From an uncultured archaeon (lineage in GTDB: Archaea > Asgardarchaeota > Lokiarchaeia > Sigyniarchaeales > SOKP01): a stretch of DNA of 61,191 nucleotides. The position numbers and the translations under genes are program-made. The stretch lies in the NCBI GenBank assembly GCA_964493715.1, contig CAZBPC010000006.1, positions 1-61,191 on the forward strand, given 5' to 3'. The notes beneath the pieces are model-generated. The model made no database searches. It saw only the letters and a list, made by a program, of their open reading frames with translations, and had not been told where the DNA came from. Of this stretch, positions 15,104 through 37,035 are shown piece after piece; the first letter of the stretch is position 1; each line of letters opens with the position of its first letter.

Positions 15104-15325
15104 ATGTATTTGGCTAAAAAAACTAATACAGTAAAAACCGAAAAAATAGAACCTTTATTTGTCAAATCTAAGGTACGAGAATATATAAAAAGTAAAGATT
15201 GTAATACTGCAAGTGCAGTATTAGATGGAGCTTTATTAAATGGCATTATAACTAAAATGCTTGATAAAGCGATAGCTCGAGCCGTTGCAAATGGACGTAA
15301 GACTGTCAAAGACAGAGATTTATAA
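15104..15325 (+). CDS. histone-fold protein of the short-alpha2 (Bd0055/DUF1931-like) class
   Basis: LFVKSKVREYIK...NT......L...I..ML.KAI.RA.ANGRKTVKDRDL carries the histone RKTV..RD motif; start at ATG 15104 or TTG 15110. Confidence 0.88.
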   Translation: MYLAKKTNTVKTEKIEPLFVKSKVREYIKSKDCNTASAVLDGALLNGIITKMLDKAIARAVANGRKTVKDRDL

Positions 15326-15537
15326 AAACTTTAATAATTTATTTTTTATTTTTTTCTAAATTACTATAAATTTTTCTTAATCTAGATTATTTTAATTAAT
15401 CTTTAGGTGTCTCTGAACTTTAAATATTAAGAATAATATAATAACTAAGAAAAATGAAAGTGGATCTATAGAATTACTTCTTAAAATTGTTGAAAAAAAC
15501 AAAATTCTAAAGACACAAAAAGATAAGTGTATTAATA

Positions 15538-18500
15538 ATGGGAAAAGGAAATTTTGATAAGCAAGTATTAACCAGATTCGTTCAAACAGAATGTAAAAGG
15601 CAACTATTTTTGGATTTATCTCAAACAAGACCTAAACTCTGGAGAGATCCTAATAGGTTGCTCGTGGATCCTAAAGTTATTCGAAGAAGCTCAGATAATC
15701 TAATAAAATTAGGTCAGCGATATGAACAATTAGTCTATAAACATTTGGTTAATTTTAAAGGTGCATTATATCAAATAGATGCGAAAATTAAGGTTAAAAA
15801 ATCTTATCTTAAACCTATTATATTACTAAACCTATATAACCAAAATGACAAAGATTCCTTTTTATTATTAGAACATCAATACCGTATTCCTCCAAGTTTT
15901 TTTTTCAATCATTTTTTCGATCGATCCAAAACTAACATAATTCCTTTTTATTGGTCAAAACAACGACCCGATATAATGATTATTCGTCGTGAAAAGGATT
16001 TAACAATTCAAGTTAATGAACTTTTAACAGATGGGACAATCCGCACTGTTCCAAAAGAAGAGCTTAAAACAAGATATAGCATATCAATCATTGATATTAA
16101 AAATATCCGAGATGAAAATATTGGAAAGAAGCAATTCATTGAAATTTTATATTACATGTTAACTTTATCTCACTTCTTAAAAGAAAACGATTTATCGTCT
16201 AAATTTTTTGTAAACATTGATTTTAACGGAATTCTTGCTCGTTTAAATGAAGAAAATATTCTAAAGATGAGAACTGTTGAAAATCTCATCTCTGAAATTA
16301 TAAATGTAGATTGGGAAGAATCAAATATAATAATTAAAGATTTAATTTCTCAAATAAAGAATTTATGGAAGAAAACTCCCTGTTCGATTGACGAAATCCC
16401 TGTTAACATTCAACCAAACTGTGGATTCTGTTATTTTATTGAGGATTGCAAAGATTCACTCGGGAAGGATAAAAAAAAACCTTCTAGTGAATGGGATCTA
16501 GCGTTAATTCCTTATACTACTATGTCTATTGCTCAGCAATTAAGAAATGATTATAACTTTTCTACAATAGGAGATGTAGCGGCGAAAGTTAGGACGATCC
16601 AAACGGGAGATACCCCTAAACCAATATATTCTGAGTTACCCCTATTAGAACTAAAAGCTAGAGCACTAATTGAAAATAAAATTATAAAACCAAAACCAGG
16701 GGATATTCATGCATATTCCATACCAAAATATTCAACGATTGGAATAAATTTCGCAGTAGAAACCGATCCAGCAAATCAAAGAGTTTATGCTGCAGGGTTA
16801 TTTCTCTTTATGTCTGTTTTTTCTAAATCTCCATACAGACGAATATATGATAATTGGTGGAGAATCTGGAAAGAAGGATTAGAAGATTCAAAATCCAATG
16901 AAGAGATCCAATTGAAATTAAATGAACATCTGATTCATGAAATTCCAATCAATGTAGTAGATAGGTTTCGTGAATATCTAGAAAAATTAAATCTATTCAA
17001 AACAATATATCTCGCCGGTGATAAAAAGGCAGATGGAACTTTAAGAAAACAAACTGTGGTAATTTATCAATTTGCAAATATCAATGAGGGTGATTCTGAT
17101 GAAACCGAAGGAAAATTCGCGGAGATAATTATTTTAAGGTTATATTATCTCTTGGAAATGTGTAATATAGTCGAAAATTATGTGATAATTGATGCAAAAG
17201 AGGCGGGGAGATATTATGGACCCTCAACAAGTTTATTTTACTGGTCTAAAAGACAATTGAATAATTTCCAAGATATGCTTGAAAGAAATATAAATCATAT
17301 TATCAATAATCAAGAAGTAGCCATTGCCTTTGATGCAATAATTTCATTATTTACGCCTTCAGATTCTGAAGTGGCTCACCCTTATCAACATAAAAAATTA
17401 TTTAATGTACAAGAATTTGCAGAATCAGTTTTTGGTTTTCCCAGTATTATTTCATATACATGGCATAAAATAGCTAAAAAAGAATTTAAAACTTATGCTA
17501 ATAAAAAGTATTGGATTCCGCATTTTAATTACATGGACTTTAATAACTGGTACGATTACATTTTAGAGGAGGATGATGAAAAGAAAAAAGAGAAAAAAAA
17601 AGAGATAACCAGGCAAGTAATGTTTAAAGTCCGAACAATTAACTCTCTGAGAAGTAAATTTCAAGATCAATTCAGTAATATTATATCCAAGAATGTAAGG
17701 GTTATTAATAAAACTCAATTTATCAGTATTTTTTTAAGTCCAGAATTTCACCCAATTAGTCAAGTATGGTATTTATTTTCCAAATACACTGGTGCAATGG
17801 AGGAAATGGATACAGAATATTTCCGAACTACTTTTCCTGAATTTAGTATCGGAAAATTAGCAGCTGCTAAAGTGGAAGATTTAAGGATTTGGAGCCCTAC
17901 AGGAAAGAAAAATATATGTGATTTTAAAATTACCTCGTTATCTAGTAATATGAATATTAATCCGGGAGATCGAGTATATTTACTACCCGATAATGAAAGA
18001 GATACAAAGACAATACAAAAACTGGAACAATGGAAAATTATCATCAAGGAAATGGTTTGGGATCCTAAAATTAATGGATATTATATCTTTTCACAAGAAA
18101 CGAATAGTAAAAGGTTAGATGAATATAAAGGAATTGAAAACCATTTTTCATGGTTTATATATCACACGTCATTAGATGTTTGGTCAAATAAACTATATAA
18201 TAAAAATGGACTATTAGAGCGATATAATTTGGGTAAATCTTGGTTGGGATTTAGACTCTCTTACTTGTGGAATATAAGATCAAAGCAAGAATTATATTGG
18301 CCTTATAATTGGGAATTTTTGACTCCTTCTGTTTATTTATATCTCCCAGAAGTATTATCTTCTCTCACAACTGATCCCTCTAAAAATCTCAGTTCAAAAT
18401 TAATTACTGCAATAAATCCTATTCCTGATGAGTCTCAAATTATTGCAATAAACAATTCTTTAAATCACGTGATTTCAGGAATCCAAGGACCTCCTGGAAC

Positions 18501-20007
18501 TGGAAAATCTCAAACGATAGCAGCTCTTATTGATGAATATTATGAGAGATGTCTTCTTAATGGGAAAAAAACCATTAGAATCTTGGTATCTTGTTTTTCT
18601 TATGCAGCTCTGAAGGTTGTTTTGGATAAAATTCGAATAGGGAAAGATTCATTTGATAATCCTACTAAATCCTCACACTTACAATTAGTTTATTTAAGAT
18701 CTGAATATCAAAAACAAATTGAATCAAAAAAGGGATGTAGAGATGTTGACGATTTGCTCCGAAAGGGTTCCACTTGGAAATTAAATGGAACATCACGAAC
18801 AGTAACAAATAAAATCCATCTAGAAGAATCACTTGAGGAAAGTTTTATTATATTTGCAAATGCTCACCAGTTATATCATTTGGTGGAAAGGGTTAATCCA
18901 GAATTCTCTTTTGATTTGGTAATCATAGATGAAGCAAGCCAAGTTCCTATTCATTATTTTCTATCAAGTTTACAATTCATTATAAAAAAGAACCTTAAGT
19001 TAAAAATTAAAACTACTCCTGGGGAGCCTGGTACTTTAATCAGAGATCGGAGCATTATTGAAGAATTTGAGCTCGAAAGTAAGCTCGATCCAGAAACATT
19101 ATCGAAGGTTATAATCGTAGGGGATTATAATCAATTACCTCCTGTACAACCAATTAAACCCCCTAAAAACTTAGAGGTTATCTTAGGCAGTCTATTTACA
19201 TATTATGTCAGACAACAAAAGATTTCTAATGTTCAATTGAAAGTAAATTATCGTTCGCATCAAGATATTGTTGACTTTACTTCTGCTTTATTATTATATG
19301 AAGATATTAATCCATGTAAGGAAAATGCGCAAAAATTATTAAAGGGAAAAATCAAAAAAGAAGAAGAACAATGGATTAAAATTGTACTAGATCCTCAAAA
19401 GGTTGTTTCTGTTATCGTACATGGGAGAGAATATGAAATTGGAGTAAGTGCTCTTGAAGCAGAATTAGTATCTAACCTCACTATTAGTTATTTTAGTATG
19501 ATAAACCCAAAAACCGGAAAAGAAGAAACTCAATTCTGGAAAGAGAAATTGGGAGTTGTTGCACCGCACAATGCTCAGGGGCGTTTGATCATTAGAAAAA
19601 TATTTGATAGATTAACTGAGGATAAAAATCGATTAACAAATTTAGAAAATCAAGAATTAATGAGGAGATTACGAAATACTGTTTATTCTGTTGAAAAATT
19701 CCAAGGATCTGATCGAGATTTAATTATTGCTTCATTTGGATTATCAGATAAAGATCAACTAGATGCCGAGAGTGAATTTATCTATAATTTAAATAGGTTT
19801 AATGTACTAACCTCCAGGGCTAAATATAAACTAATATTAGTAATGAGTAAAAAGTTTCTTGGGTTCATACCAAATGATAGAACTATTATGACTCAAGCAG
19901 CTCATATTAGGAAATATGCATTTTCCTTTTGTAATGAGGAAATGTTCATTGATATATTCAATGAAAAAAAGGAAAAAGAAACAGTAGTCTATAGATATAA
20001 AAAATAA
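15538..20007 (+). CDS. Dna2/TM0106-like nuclease-helicase: Fe-S PD-(D/E)XK nuclease + RNase H-like domain + Upf1/Dna2-type SF1B helicase
   Basis: C19...RPD...IIDIK...CGFCYFIEDC; FAVETDP; GPPGTGKS, DEASQ, GDYNQLPP, NYRS, APHNAQ, VEKFQG, RFNVLTSRAK. Confidence 0.88.
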   Translation: MGKGNFDKQVLTRFVQTECKRQLFLDLSQTRPKLWRDPNRLLVDPKVIRRSSDNLIKLGQRYEQLVYKHLVNFKGALYQIDAKIKVKKSYLKPIILLNLYNQNDKDSFLLLEHQYRIPPSFFFNHFFDRSKTNIIPFYWSKQRPDIMIIRREKDLTIQVNELLTDGTIRTVPKEELKTRYSISIIDIKNIRDENIGKKQFIEILYYMLTLSHFLKENDLSSKFFVNIDFNGILARLNEENILKMRTVENLISEIINVDWEESNIIIKDLISQIKNLWKKTPCSIDEIPVNIQPNCGFCYFIEDCKDSLGKDKKKPSSEWDLALIPYTTMSIAQQLRNDYNFSTIGDVAAKVRTIQTGDTPKPIYSELPLLELKARALIENKIIKPKPGDIHAYSIPKYSTIGINFAVETDPANQRVYAAGLFLFMSVFSKSPYRRIYDNWWRIWKEGLEDSKSNEEIQLKLNEHLIHEIPINVVDRFREYLEKLNLFKTIYLAGDKKADGTLRKQTVVIYQFANINEGDSDETEGKFAEIIILRLYYLLEMCNIVENYVIIDAKEAGRYYGPSTSLFYWSKRQLNNFQDMLERNINHIINNQEVAIAFDAIISLFTPSDSEVAHPYQHKKLFNVQEFAESVFGFPSIISYTWHKIAKKEFKTYANKKYWIPHFNYMDFNNWYDYILEEDDEKKKEKKKEITRQVMFKVRTINSLRSKFQDQFSNIISKNVRVINKTQFISIFLSPEFHPISQVWYLFSKYTGAMEEMDTEYFRTTFPEFSIGKLAAAKVEDLRIWSPTGKKNICDFKITSLSSNMNINPGDRVYLLPDNERDTKTIQKLEQWKIIIKEMVWDPKINGYYIFSQETNSKRLDEYKGIENHFSWFIYHTSLDVWSNKLYNKNGLLERYNLGKSWLGFRLSYLWNIRSKQELYWPYNWEFLTPSVYLYLPEVLSSLTTDPSKNLSSKLITAINPIPDESQIIAINNSLNHVISGIQGPPGTGKSQTIAALIDEYYERCLLNGKKTIRILVSCFSYAALKVVLDKIRIGKDSFDNPTKSSHLQLVYLRSEYQKQIESKKGCRDVDDLLRKGSTWKLNGTSRTVTNKIHLEESLEESFIIFANAHQLYHLVERVNPEFSFDLVIIDEASQVPIHYFLSSLQFIIKKNLKLKIKTTPGEPGTLIRDRSIIEEFELESKLDPETLSKVIIVGDYNQLPPVQPIKPPKNLEVILGSLFTYYVRQQKISNVQLKVNYRSHQDIVDFTSALLLYEDINPCKENAQKLLKGKIKKEEEQWIKIVLDPQKVVSVIVHGREYEIGVSALEAELVSNLTISYFSMINPKTGKEETQFWKEKLGVVAPHNAQGRLIIRKIFDRLTEDKNRLTNLENQELMRRLRNTVYSVEKFQGSDRDLIIASFGLSDKDQLDAESEFIYNLNRFNVLTSRAKYKLILVMSKKFLGFIPNDRTIMTQAAHIRKYAFSFCNEEMFIDIFNEKKEKETVVYRYKK

Positions 20008-20017
20008 AATTACTTAA

Positions 20018-21577
20018 ATGATTATAATGGAACCGATAAAATTCATTCATATATCAGATATTCATCTCGGTAAGAGACAATATAATTTGAAAGAGAGATA
20101 TAAAGACTATTTTCGAGCATTTAAATGGGTTTTGGATTTTGCTATTAGTAAAAAAGTAGATTTTTTATTAATATCGGGAGATCTTTTTGATAACAAAAAT
20201 ATTAATCCCTCTGTATTGAGTGATGTTTTTTACTTAATTAGGGATTTTAAAAAAAGGAGCTCTTCAGAATTAAATAAAGAAATTCCAATAGTATGTATAG
20301 AAGGAAATCATGATAATCCTGTTTATAAAACCAATTCATGGATGAGTTTTTTGGCCGATTTAGATCTAATTATATTGCTCGCTGGAGATTATGATAAGGA
20401 TAGTAAAAAATTATCTTTTCAACAATATTCTACCTCAAACCATAGAGGTGGAATGGTCCAAATTAAAGATGCCATAATTTATGGACTTCCTTATTATGGC
20501 AGTTTTACTAAACACATGTTTCCCGCAATTTATCAAGCAATTCCTAAAAAAGAGGATAAATTTAACATTTTAATGATGCATTTTGGTATTGAAGGGCAAG
20601 ATAAATCAAAACCGGGAATTGAATTAACGCCTAATCTTAAAAAATTACATGATAAAATAAATTATCTGGCTTTGGGACATTATCATAAGAATTATATATT
20701 AGAAGACCAAGAACAGTGGATATATAATCCAGGAAGTTTAGAATTGAATGATCTTACTGAATTATCTTTTAGTAGAGGCGCCTTTTTAGCCGAAATATCT
20801 GGAAGTGAATATTATCAAAAAGATTTAAAATTTATAGAATGCGATAATGGAAACAAAAATCCTAATAGAATTCCAAACAGAGAATTTTTCCAAATCCAAT
20901 CAATTGATATTACAGGAGAGAGTTCTTTCGAAGGTGCTATAGAATATATATTAAAAAAATTGAAGCAATATGGATTACCACTTCGAGATATAAATAAAGA
21001 AATTAATAAGAGTGATTTGAACTGTCCAATCGCAGCCTTTAAAATTATTGGAGAAGTGGGTTTTTCTCGTTTAGAAATCAATTTAAACAAGCTGAAAGAA
21101 GAGATAATCAAGAAATATGCTGTTTTAGATGTTCGAGTATCTTCTAAGGATTTATTTTCTGCAATAGATTTAATAAAAATCGAAGAAGAAGATTTAACTA
21201 TTGAAAAAATTGAACGACTCGTGTTTAGCGCATTAATAGATCAAAATGAAGAGTATAAACCCCTAAAATCAGAAATCCTTAATTTATTAGATGATTTTAA
21301 GGCTGAACTGATATTAAAAGGACCAAATTACGCAAAACTTAAAGAAGAACTGATTCAATGGAGTAATTTAAATATTAAAGATTTTAAAAATCTAGATATA
21401 GCCAATAAAAAACCCATCGTAGATAGCTTAGAGTCATTTGATCTTAAGGAAAAAGCAGATAAAAATGAAGAAAAAGAAATTGATATAGAAGAAGATAAAG
21501 GATTTAGTGATTATAATGAGTTCGATGATCTTGATAATTTTATTGATGATGGATTTGATGAATCAGGAGATGATTAA
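20018..21577 (+). CDS. mre11: Mre11/SbcD DNA repair nuclease with acidic C-terminal tail
   Basis: SDIHLG, GDLFD, GNHD, MHFG, LGHYH, NPGSLE metallophosphoesterase motifs; adjacent to an SMC-like ATPase. Confidence 0.92.
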   Translation: MIIMEPIKFIHISDIHLGKRQYNLKERYKDYFRAFKWVLDFAISKKVDFLLISGDLFDNKNINPSVLSDVFYLIRDFKKRSSSELNKEIPIVCIEGNHDNPVYKTNSWMSFLADLDLIILLAGDYDKDSKKLSFQQYSTSNHRGGMVQIKDAIIYGLPYYGSFTKHMFPAIYQAIPKKEDKFNILMMHFGIEGQDKSKPGIELTPNLKKLHDKINYLALGHYHKNYILEDQEQWIYNPGSLELNDLTELSFSRGAFLAEISGSEYYQKDLKFIECDNGNKNPNRIPNREFFQIQSIDITGESSFEGAIEYILKKLKQYGLPLRDINKEINKSDLNCPIAAFKIIGEVGFSRLEINLNKLKEEIIKKYAVLDVRVSSKDLFSAIDLIKIEEEDLTIEKIERLVFSALIDQNEEYKPLKSEILNLLDDFKAELILKGPNYAKLKEELIQWSNLNIKDFKNLDIANKKPIVDSLESFDLKEKADKNEEKEIDIEEDKGFSDYNEFDDLDNFIDDGFDESGDD

Positions 21578-21582
21578 TAACT

Positions 21583-24237
21583 ATGATAATAACAAAAATA
21601 GAACTCGAAAATATAGCAACACACAAGTCCACTGTTATAGATTTTCAAGATGGTTTAAATGTGTTGCTTGGTCAAAATGGTACAGGTAAATCTACAGTTC
21701 TAAATATGATTGGATATAATTTATTTGATTTCTTACAAGGAAATCAAGGAAGTTATATACGTGATGATGTTTTAAACCACACAAATCATGGAATTGTAAA
21801 GGTCTGGATTGTAGGATTAAACGATGATCAATTTATAATTTCTAGGACAATTGGAAAACAAGCAAACATTATTGAAGTCTCTGATGCTAAAACAGGGACT
21901 TTATTAACTAGTATTAATGATAAATCAAGCTTACAACAATGGTTAAAGACTCAAATCGGTTTAAAACCAGAATTTAATTTATCAAAACTTTTTAATACAT
22001 CGGTTGGTGTTCCTCAAGGAACTTTTACTGAACCTTTTCTAAGAGCACCTCAAGGTAGAAAAGACTTTTTTGACCCTATCTTACAAGTAGATGTATATCG
22101 ATCTATGTGGATGAAAATAAAGGGCATACAGAGTTCAATTTTAGAAGATATTCATCAATTTGAAAAAGATGCTGAAAAATTAAAAGGTTTTTTGATAAAT
22201 AAGGATGAGTTATTAGATAAAGCTAAAAATTCAGAAGAAAAATTAGATAATTTTCAAAAAAGTAAAGCTGAATTGGAAATTCAATTGAAGAAGGTAAATG
22301 AGAAACATGATCATTTAACAAATCTAAAATCAGAACTAGATCAACTTATTCAATCAACCAAAGAATTAGAAGGAAATCGAAATGAGATGGTCTCAAGGCT
22401 TGAAGAGAAAAAGAAATCTCTAAAAGAAGCAACCGAATCTAACGAACTATGTCTCAAAACTAAAAAGAATTATGAAGAATATGAGAAATTATCTCAAGAA
22501 ATGAATAGAATAAGTGATGTCATTGAATTAGATTCAAAAATTGAAATTATTCTTAAAGATGTTAATAAAATTGAATCTTCAACAAAAGAATTAGATACTT
22601 ATACTATTGATTATCACAAAGATTTAGAATTACAAAAGAAAATTGAAAAACAACAAGAATTAATATCGAAAATTCAAAATGATAAATTACAAATGAGTAA
22701 AATCAGAGAAAATTATACGTCTCTTAGTAAGGATATTAATGATAAAGAGAAAGCTTTAACCAATTATTCCCAAATTAAATCAAAACTTACTGATCTTGAG
22801 AAAATTTTCGAAAATCAAAGAATTTTAGAAAATGAAATTATTAAGTTAGAAGCTGAATTGAATCAATTAAAAATGAATAAAGAACATTCCAAAAATGGAA
22901 AATGTCCTATTTTGAATGAACAATGTAAAAATGTTAAAGATAAATCGCTTGAACAGATTTTTGAAAAGAAAATCAAGGAATTGGAGATAAGACTTCATCC
23001 AAACAAAAAGGAGTTTCAAGCTAATGAACAAAAATTAGTAGATTTTGAAAGAATTAAAAAAGAATATGAAGATCTAAGGGAATCATATCTTAAATTAGAA
23101 TTATATAAAAATCAGAAACTAAATTTAGGACGCGATATCCAAGAAATTAAAAATAATCTAAAAGATGAATCAAATGAGAGAGAAATTTTAACTAAATTGA
23201 AGAAAAATAAGGCTTCTTTAGAGTTAAATGTAAACCAATATCACATCTTAAAGGATAAGTTTGAAAATACTCTGCCGAAATTAAATGATGCGCTTAAAAA
23301 ATTACAAAATGAAAAAGAATCCCTTGTAGAAAGCTTAGGATTTACGAAAAAAGCTAAAAAACCTTCTGAAGACTTTTTTACGACATTTGAATCTATTACT
23401 GATAAAATGAACAAAATACGAGAAGATCATGACATATTTCAAATGAATGAAAAACTAGGGAATCGCTTGCCTGAATTAACCTCTCTTGTAGATGAACTGG
23501 AGAAAAAATTAAAAGAAGCAAATGATAAACTAAAAATCGAGATAGTAACCAAGGAAAGAATTGAAAAATCATTTGATATGGAGGAATATAATATAATCAC
23601 AATGAAAAAAGATGAAATTAATAAATCATATATCAAAATTGAAGAAAACATTAAAAATGAAAGAAGTAATTTTGAAGAGTATTCACAACAAATAGACATT
23701 ATGTTGATAAAAGAGCAAGAATTAACTCAAATTGATGACAAATTAGAAAGTTTAGAATTCTTGGAGAAATATATTGATACAATTAGGACCTGGTATAAAG
23801 AAGCATCTCCCAAAATTACTGAATCGCTTCTAAAACGAGTAAACTTAATCGCTTCAGAGATTTATCGCGATCTTTTTGAAAGTGAAAATATTGAATTAAA
23901 GTGGGAGAATGATTATAATGTCAAAATTGAGACCATTAATAGCACAAAGGAATATCGTCAATTATCTGGCGGAGAACAAATGGCCGCTGCTCTTGCTATA
24001 CGTCTTGCTATTCTAAAAGTCCTTACTAATGCAGATTTTGCATTTTTCGATGAACCTACTACAAATTTAGATAAAGATAAACGTAGTAATCTCGCAAGAT
24101 GCATACAGAATATCAAAGGTTTCCGTCAAATATTTGTAATTTCACATGATGATACGTTCGAAGAGAATGCTGAAAATATAATTAGGTTCACCAAGGACGA
24201 GGAAGAAATTACCCACGTGCAATTTTTAAGCAACTAA
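21583..24237 (+). CDS. rad50: Rad50/SbcC SMC-like ATPase
   Basis: GQNGTGKS, Q-loop PQG, long coiled coil, central CPILNEQC, LSGGE, FFDEPT, ISHD. Confidence 0.93.
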   Translation: MIITKIELENIATHKSTVIDFQDGLNVLLGQNGTGKSTVLNMIGYNLFDFLQGNQGSYIRDDVLNHTNHGIVKVWIVGLNDDQFIISRTIGKQANIIEVSDAKTGTLLTSINDKSSLQQWLKTQIGLKPEFNLSKLFNTSVGVPQGTFTEPFLRAPQGRKDFFDPILQVDVYRSMWMKIKGIQSSILEDIHQFEKDAEKLKGFLINKDELLDKAKNSEEKLDNFQKSKAELEIQLKKVNEKHDHLTNLKSELDQLIQSTKELEGNRNEMVSRLEEKKKSLKEATESNELCLKTKKNYEEYEKLSQEMNRISDVIELDSKIEIILKDVNKIESSTKELDTYTIDYHKDLELQKKIEKQQELISKIQNDKLQMSKIRENYTSLSKDINDKEKALTNYSQIKSKLTDLEKIFENQRILENEIIKLEAELNQLKMNKEHSKNGKCPILNEQCKNVKDKSLEQIFEKKIKELEIRLHPNKKEFQANEQKLVDFERIKKEYEDLRESYLKLELYKNQKLNLGRDIQEIKNNLKDESNEREILTKLKKNKASLELNVNQYHILKDKFENTLPKLNDALKKLQNEKESLVESLGFTKKAKKPSEDFFTTFESITDKMNKIREDHDIFQMNEKLGNRLPELTSLVDELEKKLKEANDKLKIEIVTKERIEKSFDMEEYNIITMKKDEINKSYIKIEENIKNERSNFEEYSQQIDIMLIKEQELTQIDDKLESLEFLEKYIDTIRTWYKEASPKITESLLKRVNLIASEIYRDLFESENIELKWENDYNVKIETINSTKEYRQLSGGEQMAAALAIRLAILKVLTNADFAFFDEPTTNLDKDKRSNLARCIQNIKGFRQIFVISHDDTFEENAENIIRFTKDEEEITHVQFLSN

Positions 24238-24357
24238 ATTAAGAAATTTTTAAGTTTATTTTCCTTTTTTTATCCTTTCATTTTTTTGTATAAATTATGA
24301 TATAATAGAGACTCCATAAATTTTTATATCAAATACACTCGTTGTTCCTTAGGGAAT

Positions 24358-24900
24358 ATGCAAGAAACCATTTCTTTAGTAATTGGGTATTTGATATTAC
24401 TAATTATTATTTATATAACTTACATATTCATTAAGAAAAAAAGAGAGGGAGAAAGAGAGAAAAAACCAAGTAAGGAACAATCTCAATCCATTGAAATTAA
24501 AAAATATACCTGTTTAGATGGTCATTTGGTCAAATCAAAAGGTGAGTTAATTATTGATAATTATTTGTATTTGCTTAAGATAGAACATTTTTATGAGAAA
24601 TCCATCAAGATTTATGGTTCAAAAATCAAATATGATTGGTATCTCCCAAAATACGATATTTATATGGAATATTGGGGTTATGGAGGTAAAAAATATGAAA
24701 AAAGAAAAAAAGAAAAATTACGATTGTATAAAAAAGCCAATCTGAAACTAATTTCAATAGAAAATTACATGTTTCACGACATCTACTCAGAAATCGATAA
24801 AAAATTAAAAAAGTTTATCAACATAAAAAATCTAAAATATCCAATCAATTTTAGCCAAATTTTTTATAATTATGGAACCCAAATGGATGAAAGGATTTAA
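24358..24900 (+). CDS. N-terminally membrane-anchored PD-(D/E)XK-type nuclease-domain protein
   Basis: TM 6-25; DGH.VKSKGELIIDNYL...YE...YDWYLP...YMEYWG, a motif set seen in helicase-IV-associated restriction-like domains. Confidence 0.7.
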   Translation: MQETISLVIGYLILLIIIYITYIFIKKKREGEREKKPSKEQSQSIEIKKYTCLDGHLVKSKGELIIDNYLYLLKIEHFYEKSIKIYGSKIKYDWYLPKYDIYMEYWGYGGKKYEKRKKEKLRLYKKANLKLISIENYMFHDIYSEIDKKLKKFINIKNLKYPINFSQIFYNYGTQMDERI

Positions 24901-35763: not shown

Positions 35764-37035
35764 TTATTCAGTGCCTATAACAAACTTGATGACTTTTATA
35801 ATATCGGATTTGCGCGCATTATTAGGTAAATGAATATCATTTTCATCACAGAACTGCTTTAACTCTTTTACTGTTAAATTTGATAGATCGTCGGGAAGTT
35901 GTTGTGTTGCTTCCTGTGAAATAATATTTTCTGAATCTTTAGGATCTTCAGAGGGTTCCCCTTCCAAATTGATTGAGGATTCGTATTTTTCTCCTGATAC
36001 CTCTTCAATGGCACTAATTATATCTTCTAAATCTTCTTTTTTTCTTTTTGGGAACAAATCTGGGACTTGTTCAACGACATTACTATCTAACGTTTCTGTT
36101 TTTTTTTCCCCTGTTTTGATTTGGTTTTCTTTCATCTCCTTCATAGAATTCGCATAATTTTCTCTTAGATGTTTTAAACTTGCATTTATGAGGTTTGAAA
36201 AATTTGTCCATCCATCCTTTTCTATTGCAGATTTTGCCCAGAGATATAAATCTTGCTGTAAATCAACTGTGATTACCTTCCCTTCAGTAGCAATATCTAA
36301 GATCAACCACCGTAAAATGTTAGAAATTATAATGTCATTATCAAAAGCCTTAAATCCGTATTCTCGTCCAAGACTTGAAAATATGGAAAGACTTCCAAAT
36401 GCAAAAACTTTTCCCTTAAAATATTCAACACTCACCATTAGTGGTATTTTTGGAGAATCTTCTTCAATCCATGTCTGTCCATCAAAGAAATTACGAAAAC
36501 AATAGAGTCCTCCTCTTACAACAACGTCAAATCTTACATTTTTCCTATTTTCTTCAAGTTCAAACGTTTCAATTGAACATGCACTAGATAAAACGATTTT
36601 TTGAATTTGTTCCGTGATATAGTGTGATTTGAACTTATCTAAAATCTGTCGTTTTTGTACGCTTACATAATTCACGGAATCAGACACTTCATCAGCTACA
36701 AATCTAAATCCAAATTTTTTTGTGAGTTCATTCAAATTGGTACGATTAACATAATCTCCTCCACGAGTGCTTACGAGCAACAATCCTCCTCCCAACCTTA
36801 CATATTGTTCTAAATTTTCAATTTCTTGAGGACTTAGGTCAACATTTTTAGGAGATGATATAATGATCGCATCATAATCTTTTAGTGTCATTACTGAAGC
36901 AAATCCCGCCTCTATTTTCCCTAATTTATAACCTGAAGTAAATAAAAATTGGGTAAAATCTGTATAGGAAGAAGCTTCCAATGTTAACATGTTGTTATGG
37001 CTATTATCAAGGGCAATTGAATATTTCTTTTCCAT
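35764..37035 (-). CDS. GIFT (GldG/IFT52-like) domain + RHH-like segment + SAP/Rho-N-like C-terminal domain
   Basis: D.SHN, L..YD..II.SP, EIE.L..YV..GGGLL, NLNEL...FG, G.V...GS..IFS, DN...N...WL; C-terminal LSNLTVKELK..C....I......RK.DII. Confidence 0.7.
   Translation of the reverse strand: MEKKYSIALDNSHNNMLTLEASSYTDFTQFLFTSGYKLGKIEAGFASVMTLKDYDAIIISSPKNVDLSPQEIENLEQYVRLGGGLLLVSTRGGDYVNRTNLNELTKKFGFRFVADEVSDSVNYVSVQKRQILDKFKSHYITEQIQKIVLSSACSIETFELEENRKNVRFDVVVRGGLYCFRNFFDGQTWIEEDSPKIPLMVSVEYFKGKVFAFGSLSIFSSLGREYGFKAFDNDIIISNILRWLILDIATEGKVITVDLQQDLYLWAKSAIEKDGWTNFSNLINASLKHLRENYANSMKEMKENQIKTGEKKTETLDSNVVEQVPDLFPKRKKEDLEDIISAIEEVSGEKYESSINLEGEPSEDPKDSENIISQEATQQLPDDLSNLTVKELKQFCDENDIHLPNNARKSDIIKVIKFVIGTE

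Follow-up and report, generated by a model that had tools for sequence, protein, structure and literature searches.

The operon and its chromosomal site

Archaea repair DNA breaks with Mre11-Rad50 and HerA-NurA, and eukaryotes with MRN and either Dna2 or Exo1. Here, we describe an operon from an uncultured archaeon (Asgardarchaeota; Lokiarchaeia; Sigyniarchaeales) in which the genes for Mre11 and Rad50 follow a gene for a large nuclease-helicase. The window, that is, the whole stretch of 61,191 nt that was analyzed (contig CAZBPC010000006.1 of assembly GCA_964493715.1; 30% GC), contains three forward-strand open reading frames (ORFs) at 15538-20007 (1489 aa), 20018-21577 (519 aa), and 21583-24237 (884 aa). 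The name HelNuc was coined here for the 1489-aa protein, whose gene (15538..20007, + strand) was delimited from the ORF and its translation. A gap of 10 nt parts HelNuc from mre11 and one of 5 nt parts mre11 from rad50, which confirms the tight spacing reported in a first-pass annotation of this DNA, and the three genes make up an operon-like unit that is conserved.

That annotation had also placed the nuclease-helicase "instead of" HerA-NurA, and this proved literally correct: members of the same genus carry variants of herA-nurA-mre11-rad50 at the very same site. Genus members without HelNuc carry other Rad50-like genes of ~700 aa. In one of them (G233; completeness 100), an operon encodes HerA (582 aa, DUF87), a NurA-like protein (391 aa, weak match), an Mre11-like protein (439 aa), and Rad50 (701 aa), and its flanks are those of the window module, with identities of 42-94% for DAGK (70%), a 192-aa ORF (42%), an S26 peptidase (61%), Alba (94%), a 72-aa ORF (71%), an aminotransferase (70%), a 122-aa ORF (78%), and a CxxCxxCC protein (55%). 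DAGK, the S26 peptidase, Alba, and the 72-aa ORF lie on one side of the site, and a 180-aa ORF, the aminotransferase, and the 122-aa ORF on the other.

We read this variable site in 14 genomes of the genus and found five states: (i) HelNuc-Mre11-Rad50 in the assembly of the window (G000) and in G245 and G254, the two genomes most closely related to it; (ii) a HerA-first operon in G233, G235, G249, and G241; (iii) NurA-like-HerA-Mre11-Rad50 on the other strand in G256, where it was checked with Pfam, and in G261 and G237, where weak tblastn hits fall at the same positions; (iv) NurA-like-HerA with a fused Mre11-Rad50 in G232; and (v) an empty site. The fusion is a single ORF of 1200 aa (L166, 9719-13321, - strand), which combines the phosphoesterase domain of Mre11 with an ATPase of Rad50 type and stands behind HerA and the NurA-like gene at the same aminotransferase-linked site. 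Every occupied site among the 14 genomes holds an Mre11-Rad50 (MR)-based end-processing set, and no other kind of system was seen there. In G266, G241, and G240, the HelNuc module lies at another position. At one chromosomal site, HelNuc-Mre11-Rad50 takes the place of the HerA-NurA set.

The same alternation is seen more loosely across the order, where HelNuc occurs in 38 and HerA of the G233 type in 54 of 152 genomes, with only 3 genomes carrying both against 13.5 expected if the two were independent; as related genomes do not count as independent and HerA was counted for the G233 type alone, this is to be read as a tendency only. The Mre11 proteins of the two kinds of operon differ as well. 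The only solved relative of the HerA-linked Mre11 of G233 is SbcD (3.3e-5), and the window Mre11 is more canonical, with P. furiosus Mre11 (1ii7) as its best solved relative (2.4e-23).

The rest of the genome

The assembly of the window comprises 3.68 Mb in 160 contigs, with a completeness of 100. No second Rad50 was found in it, and the HerA, NurA-like, Mre11, and Rad50 proteins of G233 had no tblastn match in it at 1e-4. The genome is thus without a separate herA-nurA-mre11-rad50 locus, a possibility that the first-pass annotation had proposed to check. It does encode a second Mre11-like protein, a stand-alone paralogue of 394 aa (contig C71, 2360-3544, - strand) that is 36% identical to the window Mre11. 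This paralogue lies among transporter and oxidoreductase genes, and similar stand-alone copies are present in G249 and G238.

Domain architecture of HelNuc

The first 320 residues of HelNuc (15538..16497, + strand) are predicted to form a Cas4/RecB-type PD-(D/E)xK nuclease domain, based on an alignment of 39 family members from fetched loci, an AlphaFold2 model, and VIA-align searches, which also supplied the other fold assignments given below. The first-pass annotation had pointed to a 1+3 cysteine staple around a PD...DxK nuclease, followed by a helicase of the Upf1/Dna2-type superfamily 1B (SF1B). All of these residues are present, as C19 and C295-x2-C298-x5-C304, R143-P144-D145, and D186-I-K188, and C19, E112, D145, D186, K188, Y206, C295, C298, and C304 are invariant in the 39 members. 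A single cysteine ahead of the core and three behind it make up the "iron staple" pattern of AddB and Dna2 set out in a passage of PMC3378879; HelNuc has these four cysteines N-terminal to its helicase, as Dna2 does, and the Fe-S cluster that they would hold is putative. The QhxxY motif of RecB-type nucleases was also sought, and only Q199 and Y205/Y206 were found, at a different spacing.

The AlphaFold2 model of residues 1-330 has a mean predicted local distance difference test score (pLDDT) of 91.8. Its closest structural matches are Cas4 7mi4_A (Z 10.7, root mean square deviation [rmsd] 4.2, 187 aligned) and Cas4 8d3l_I (Z 9.8), followed by MGME1 (Z 8.0), EXO5 (7.4), Dna2 5ean_A (Z 7.4, rmsd 4.6, 197 aligned), AddB (7.1), and AdnAB (6.6-7.0), and every one of the top 22 rows is a nuclease of the Cas4/RecB superfamily. 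With a modeled restriction-endonuclease-like fold and the D...D/ExK motif, residues 1-320 can be assigned to this superfamily. Sequence searches were silent here: Pfam gave no match in the first 960 residues, including none to Cas4 or PDDEXK_1, and a profile of the N-terminal 330 residues had no hit among solved chains at E<=10. Similarly, the Pfam Dna2 model (PF08696) did not match HelNuc at E<=0.01, and when all six frames of the genome were searched at E<=1 it matched only an unrelated place on contig C2.

A second domain, at residues ~399-767 (16732..17838, + strand), appears from the model to have an RNase H fold with helical insertions, similar to DnaQ and to the exonucleases of family B polymerases. 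The predicted structure of residues 320-960 has a pLDDT of 81.3. The domain matches Pol alpha (8d0b_F; Z 13.3, rmsd 3.4, 193 aligned), archaeal PolB (5mdn_B; Z 13.0), Pol epsilon (12.8), MrfB (10.9), ExoI (10.8), the DinG exonuclease (9.9), Pol III epsilon (9.8), and the WRN exonuclease (8.7), and this list is homogeneous across model residues 80-448. Several of its residues are strongly conserved in 38 sequences: E524, E546, and H738 in all 38, D410, H643, and N664 in 37, E408 in 35, and D667 in 33. A sequence profile of residues 320-960 retrieved a single designed protein among solved chains, at the noise level (E 4.3), and Foldseek searches with the two models returned nothing at E<=0.001.

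Residues ~770-878 (17845..18171, + strand) are predicted to form a beta-barrel of the type that precedes Upf1-like helicase cores, with VIA-align matches to SETX (8ftm_B; Z 9.2, 100 aligned) and Sen1 (8ram_O; Z 9.1), and weak Foldseek rows for Upf1 (2xzp; probability 1.00, E 9.6e-3) and Dna2 (5ean; probability 0.77). The SF1B (Upf1/Dna2-type) helicase core follows at residues ~960-1445 (18415..19872, + strand). Pfam AAA_11 (1.5e-14, 54.8 bits) and AAA_12 (9.1e-20, 71.5 bits) match residues 964-1438, both above their cut-offs, and the motifs GPPGTGKSQ (984-992), DEASQ (1131-1135), VGDYNQLPPV (1194-1203), VEKFQGSDR (1385-1393), and NVLTSRAK (1422-1429) are invariant across the family. With its 1B beta-barrel, this is a Upf1-like SF1B helicase. 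Against solved chains, the family helicase profile scores almost alike with Dna2 (3.2e-20, 75.2 bits), IGHMBP2 (4.9e-20, 74.6 bits), and Upf1 (1.8e-19, 72.7 bits), so that by sequence it appears equally close to all three. A search with residues 940-1489 returned only the family itself among the best 120 rows.

Taken together, the models describe HelNuc as a two-domain nuclease module similar to that of the TM0106 family, fused to a Upf1-type barrel and helicase. The family and its operon had no published description in the literature searched, a search that left subscription journals and supplements aside, and the combination of a Cas4-like nuclease, a PolB-exonuclease-like domain, and an SF1B helicase is so far undescribed.

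Mre11 and Rad50 of the module

The second gene (20018..21577, + strand) encodes an Mre11 of archaeal type of 519 aa, identified through Pfam, NCBIfam, solved structures, and motifs. It matches Pfam Metallophos above the cut-off (1.1e-15, 59 bits) and NCBIfam Mre11_Pyroc (6.5e-29) with 101 bits, which does not reach the equivalog cut-off of 600, and has the phosphoesterase motifs SDIHLG, GDLFD, GNHD, and GHYH. None of the PADLOC families matched it. Near its C-terminus lies an acidic motif, LDNFIDD (residues 505-511; 21530..21550, + strand), which follows the pattern D-[LI]-D-[DE]-[YFI]-I-D-D in 21 aligned Mre11 tails from HelNuc-linked operons. The motif is missing in L135 and L137, where 2-3 kb of other genes part HelNuc from mre11, and the tail is possibly a partner-binding peptide.

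The third gene (21583..24237, + strand; 884 aa) encodes a protein whose sequence, with ABC-ATPase head halves around a long coiled coil, identifies it as Rad50. It matches the archaeal model NF003034 end to end (positions 1-867 of 878; 7.6e-52, 176 bits against a cut-off of 700), its head halves match the solved Rad50 of M. jannaschii and P. furiosus (2.7e-20), and Walker A (30-38), LSGGE (794-798), Walker B (821-826), and the H-loop (852-856) are all recognizable. PADLOC gave generic SMC-head matches (LmuB, mad3). The usual CxxC zinc hook is replaced by a variant, C441-P-I-L-N-E-Q-C448 (C-x6-C; 22903..22926, + strand). The same spacing, as CP[FIL]L...C, is found in 20 of 22 aligned module Rad50 proteins, the other two having CPVC or CPLC, and the HerA-linked Rad50 of G233 has CPTC.

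Linkage and phylogeny of the HelNuc family

Leaving the genome of the window aside, HelNuc was found in 7 of the 40 genomes of its own genus, 25 of 132 of its own family, 10 of 14 of family f3, and 10 of 12 of family f15. All named close homologues are from Asgard archaea (Lokiarchaeota/Promethearchaeota and Hermod-, Heimdall-, Hod-, and Sigynarchaeal lineages). A contig scan was less specific: full-length relatives made up 3 of the 80 loci kept, the rest being dominated by the generic helicase P-loop pattern.

For gene order, we fetched 40 loci of relatives. The complete series HelNuc-Mre11-Rad50, in that order, is present in 22 of them, all from the window's own order; the linkage is thus not unique to this genome, and as the same order recurs complete so often, it is not due to chance. 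Two further loci add to this, namely, L126, where a contig end inside mre11 interrupts the module, and L155, a divergent version from a distant family, with HelNuc, a 102-aa ORF, Mre11, and Rad50 (confirmed with Pfam). The remaining 16 have no adjacent Mre11-Rad50. Five of these (L141, L145, L146, L150, and L156) are uninformative, with <600 bases downstream; L142, L144, L147, and L148, from three other Asgard families, carry stand-alone HelNuc genes among metabolic genes, with 3.5-10.5 kb visible downstream; and L132 is the only exception within the order. The informative loci also include those of a clade of ~1600-aa paralogues.

In a maximum-likelihood tree of 39 proteins, the MR-linked proteins form a clade of 25 rows (24 linked and the unlinked one of G229) with a Shimodaira-Hasegawa-like approximate likelihood ratio test value (SH-aLRT) of 100, sister to the ~1600-aa paralogues. 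The pairwise identities of HelNuc, Mre11, and Rad50 correlate among the 22 loci (Spearman 0.81-0.87, 231 pairs), which suggests that the three genes travel as a unit. Outside the window, the neighbors of the MR-linked module were read in 10 genomes and are mostly housekeeping genes, such as those for actin, TFIIB, Rpb6, ribosomal S24e, and transporters. At one locus of G274 (L129, 1763-5843, - strand), the module rad50 is directly followed by the gene of another Rad50-like protein (AAA_23, 846 aa), by a small ORF, and by the gene of an ATPase of MoxR type (AAA_5); the window lacks this set.

A more distant tier of relatives is bacterial. A profile of the nuclease domain retrieved 329 representative proteins at E<=0.001, among them proteins of ~1420 aa that occur sporadically in Pseudoalteromonas, Anaerotignum, and some Listeria isolates. 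A full-length homologue (1529 aa, 37% identity) is encoded in a record with 65% GC that is titled as a proteobacterial metagenome-assembled genome (L009).

Comparison with known systems

A close counterpart is the herA-nurA-mre11-rad50 operon of Sulfolobus, Pyrococcus, and Thermococcus, which likewise groups Mre11-Rad50 with the motor and the nuclease of long-range resection. In the genus of the window, the two kinds of operon share a chromosomal site. Unlike that operon, the module is without HerA, a hexameric FtsK-type ATPase, and NurA. Its HelNuc unites an SF1B helicase and two nuclease-type domains in a single polypeptide, and the motor and nuclease parts of the two systems have no sequence relation.

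With AddAB, AdnAB, and RecBCD, HelNuc would share the combination of motor and two nuclease modules for both strands of a break, and its N-terminal model matches the nuclease domains of AddB (Z 7.1) and AdnA/AdnB (6.6-7.0). However, HelNuc is one polypeptide with one SF1B motor and is linked to Mre11-Rad50, and its second nuclease-type domain has the RNase H fold instead of being another RecB-type domain.

By fold, residues 1-780 resemble the TM0106-family RecB-like putative nucleases, which combine a Cas4-like domain with Pfam RNase_H_2. In the ESM Atlas, the nearest clusters to these residues are PDDEXK_1 and "TM0106 family RecB-like nuclease" (scores 0.92), to be taken as a lead only. The TM0106 proteins differ in being ~470-600 aa long and in lacking a helicase, and their family models TIGR03491 and PF13482 did not match HelNuc in the NCBIfam and Pfam lists; at E<=1, PF13482 (RNase_H_2) matched two other genes of the genome and again not HelNuc. 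The defense-related Upf1-like helicases of PADLOC (MkoA, DpdJ, Hhe, PDC-S37) share the SF1B Upf1-type core. Nothing in them matches the N-terminal 960 residues, and PADLOC-DB 2.0 recognized only the helicase part of HelNuc, residues 964-1464 (MkoA 1.5e-33, DpdJ 1.6e-25).

The first-pass annotation had called the protein Dna2-like, and this describes it in part. As in eukaryotic Dna2, which acts with MRN/MRX, a beta-barrel and an SF1B helicase come after a nuclease with 1+3 cysteines, and a functional coupling to Mre11-Rad50 would be a further likeness. In contrast to Dna2, HelNuc has an extra DnaQ/PolB-exonuclease-like domain of ~370 residues with no match in the solved Dna2 chain, its nuclease is structurally nearer to Cas4 (Z 10.7 versus 7.4), it has no PF08696 match, its helicase is no nearer to Dna2 than to Upf1 and IGHMBP2, and it is an operon-encoded, accessory protein with bacterial homologues. 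HelNuc is therefore Dna2-like in layout and is not a demonstrable Dna2 orthologue.

What the operon may do

We consider it probable that the three genes encode a machine for the resection of DNA break ends that has replaced HerA-NurA in situ. Judging from the families involved, Mre11-Rad50 would locate and open the broken end, and HelNuc would load on it next, its SF1B motor running 5'-to-3' along one strand. The Cas4/AddB/Dna2-type nuclease, with its putative Fe-S cluster, would digest the 5'-ended strand, leaving the recombinase RadA with a 3' tail. The role of the RNase H-fold domain could be one of the following: (i) it trims the 3' strand, which would make HelNuc a two-nuclease enzyme comparable to AddAB, AdnAB, and RecBCD, or (ii) it is a structural or DNA-binding module. 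The predicted folds and invariant residues fit a nuclease-helicase. From these, together with the gene order and its conservation, the alternation at a single site, and the single Rad50 of the genome, we infer the activities, the strand polarity, the contact of HelNuc with Mre11-Rad50, and the biological role. Since an enzyme similar to RecBCD would also destroy linear foreign DNA, a secondary protective role of HelNuc is plausible.

Several observations weigh against this reading, and most of them speak instead for a dedicated antivirus or antiplasmid system, in which Mre11-Rad50 would sense the free or replicating ends of foreign DNA, HelNuc would shred it, and the site would be a hot spot of an arms race. 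HelNuc is patchy, being found by six-frame search in 51 of 398 genomes of the phylum, G000 included, and in 11 of 90 high-quality ones; the absences are a first look, in which only the two best candidates per genome were scored. Each of the genera g1, g12, and g13 is split between two HelNuc sub-clades, which points to horizontal transfer or to old duplication and loss and is unusual for core repair. One site has five states in 14 genomes and is empty in G260, G266, and G240, and in G260 (completeness 100) the only Rad50-like frame has several stop codons (contig C7, 46049-48047), possibly as the remnant of a decaying MR module; MR modules are thus dispensable in the genus. The genome of the window also retains a stand-alone NurA gene (427 aa; contig C3, 40683-41966, + strand), with no HerA nearby and next to genes for a Rce1-like CAAX protease and a Ras-family GTPase, and three DUF87/HerA-like genes (contigs C2, C23, and C137), which adjoin neither NurA, Mre11, Rad50, nor one another, so that activities of the HerA/NurA type may not be wholly absent. 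As to the RNase H-fold domain, its acidic residues depart from the textbook DEDD pattern (E-x-D rather than D-x-E), and it may therefore be inactive. The neighborhoods of some relatives are also suggestive of defense. The bacterial homologue (L009, 144-14533, + strand) is the last gene in a row with DUF6079 (weak), PglZ (weak), BrxD (2e-137), and a DEAD-box helicase, that is, directly behind BREX-type genes; the ~1600-aa paralogues adjoin OLD-type, PIN, and Schlafen-type genes; one stand-alone HelNuc adjoins AIPR; and the second-tier bacterial relatives, as in Listeria, are sporadic. G249 carries extra NurA-HerA-Mre11-Rad50 sets (L159 and L160), one with an OLD-type gene (AAA_15 and TOPRIM) between nurA and herA and the other followed by an Eco57I/MmeI-type methylase-nuclease gene. 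However, the site alternates among MR-based sets only and never with restriction, cyclic oligonucleotide-based antiphage signaling (CBASS), or toxin-type systems, the MR-linked clade sits among housekeeping genes, and the module holds the sole Rad50 of a complete genome. Its base composition is native, no integrase, transposase, or flanking repeats were found around it, and the PADLOC matches are limited to generic helicase and SMC-head parts, with no specific system. On this balance, a system dedicated to defense seems unlikely, if still a serious contender. The first-pass annotation had proposed an SbcCD-based defense; the SbcCD label is wrong, because Mre11 and Rad50 are both of archaeal type, and a defensive or dual role is kept as a candidate. 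The two readings overlap in any case, because RecBCD and similar repair enzymes also guard the cell against phages, and AddAB, AdnAB, and RecBCD serve both repair and defense. The MR-based modules of the Lokiarchaeia are accessory and frequently exchanged, and therefore the resection machine that we favor may combine repair and defense in a manner similar to RecBCD.

The first-pass annotation had further raised a eukaryote-like resection module, and one form of this idea takes HelNuc to be the archaeal orthologue of eukaryotic Dna2 or its direct ancestor, with an MRN-Dna2-type module already present in Asgard archaea. The common order of an Fe-S nuclease, a beta-barrel, and an SF1B helicase would agree with it, as would the nuclease fold match to 5ean_A, the nominal first place of Dna2 among the solved hits of the helicase profile, and the Asgard origin of all named close homologues. 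A passage of a 2026 review on NurA, which describes Asgard NurA as uncharacterized, likewise asks whether Exo1 or Dna2 replaced NurA in eukaryotes (PMC13748450). However, Cas4, MGME1, and others fit the nuclease equally well or better, the lead of Dna2 in the helicase profile is a tie with IGHMBP2 and Upf1, the Pfam Dna2 model stays silent on HelNuc even at E<=1 genome-wide, and a sequence profile of the nuclease retrieves no solved chain. The extra RNase H-fold domain, the existence of full-length bacterial homologues, and the accessory, patchy character of a family that is not core add to this. Orthology between HelNuc and Dna2 is not supported, the likeness being partial only, and we regard direct ancestry as very improbable. 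A looser version, in which the Asgard HelNuc family had already ousted HerA-NurA from some Asgard lineages and was the prokaryotic stock of Dna2, passing to the eukaryotic line, where the RNase H-fold domain was lost and the operon uncoupled, we hold to be improbable; if true, it would explain why eukaryotes have Mre11-Rad50 and Dna2 and lack HerA and NurA. Finally, HelNuc might work on substrates of its own, such as flaps, stalled forks, or RNA-DNA hybrids, and merely be co-transcribed with mre11-rad50. Its stand-alone relatives among metabolic genes (L142, L144, L147, and L148) and the frequency of RNA as a target of Upf1-like helicases would suit this, yet the linkage is kept across a whole clade with correlated divergence, and the module trades places with herA-nurA-mre11-rad50 and not with unrelated genes, which makes such a division of labor most improbable.

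Boundaries and neighbors of the exchanged segment

The segment that is exchanged at the site extends over ~15326-24357, because the genes on both of its sides belong to the backbone. On the left, a 72-aa ORF (15107-15325, + strand), preceded by a GAGGGAG stretch, is also present at empty sites. The module adjoins this backbone gene in three genera (g1, g7, and g12). The ORF ends in ...ANGRKTVKDRDL, similar to the ends of archaeal histones, and may have a histone-like fold. It adjoins every state of the variable site as well as the module in genera g7 and g12, and a 59%-identical copy is present on contig C9. The very AT-rich intergenic stretch that follows (15326..15537, + strand) forms the left edge of the variable segment and may hold the promoter. 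On the right, a T-rich stretch after the rad50 stop (24238..24300, + strand) reads as a likely transcript end, and the variable segment runs on to 24357. The 180-aa ORF behind it (24358-24900, + strand) might have been the module's fourth gene, a reading that was rejected because the ORF occurs in genomes with an empty site.

The module matches its flanks in GC content and codon usage. The window gave no tRNA or Rfam match, the flanking genes include no integrase and no transposase, and the only repeats around the module are short, AT-rich chance ones; an integrated mobile element with recognizable ends was rejected on these grounds. Elsewhere in the window, a 423-aa protein (35764-37035, - strand) has an N-terminal part similar to ABC_transp_aux/IFT52-GIFT and a weak C-terminal HeH/LEM-like match (E 4e-4, below the cut-off). 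Alba is encoded in the window, and Ras-family GTPases in the genome.

Implications

In addition to an undescribed nuclease-helicase architecture, the locus reveals a variant hook in Rad50 and an acidic tail that is conserved in Mre11. In archaea that rank among the nearest relatives of eukaryotes, HerA-NurA has been swapped at one chromosomal site for a nuclease-helicase of one chain, whose layout resembles that of Dna2 and AddB. The swap is a natural experiment that speaks for two interchangeable solutions, and HelNuc offers a concrete protein with which to study the question of the transition from HerA-NurA to Dna2 or Exo1.

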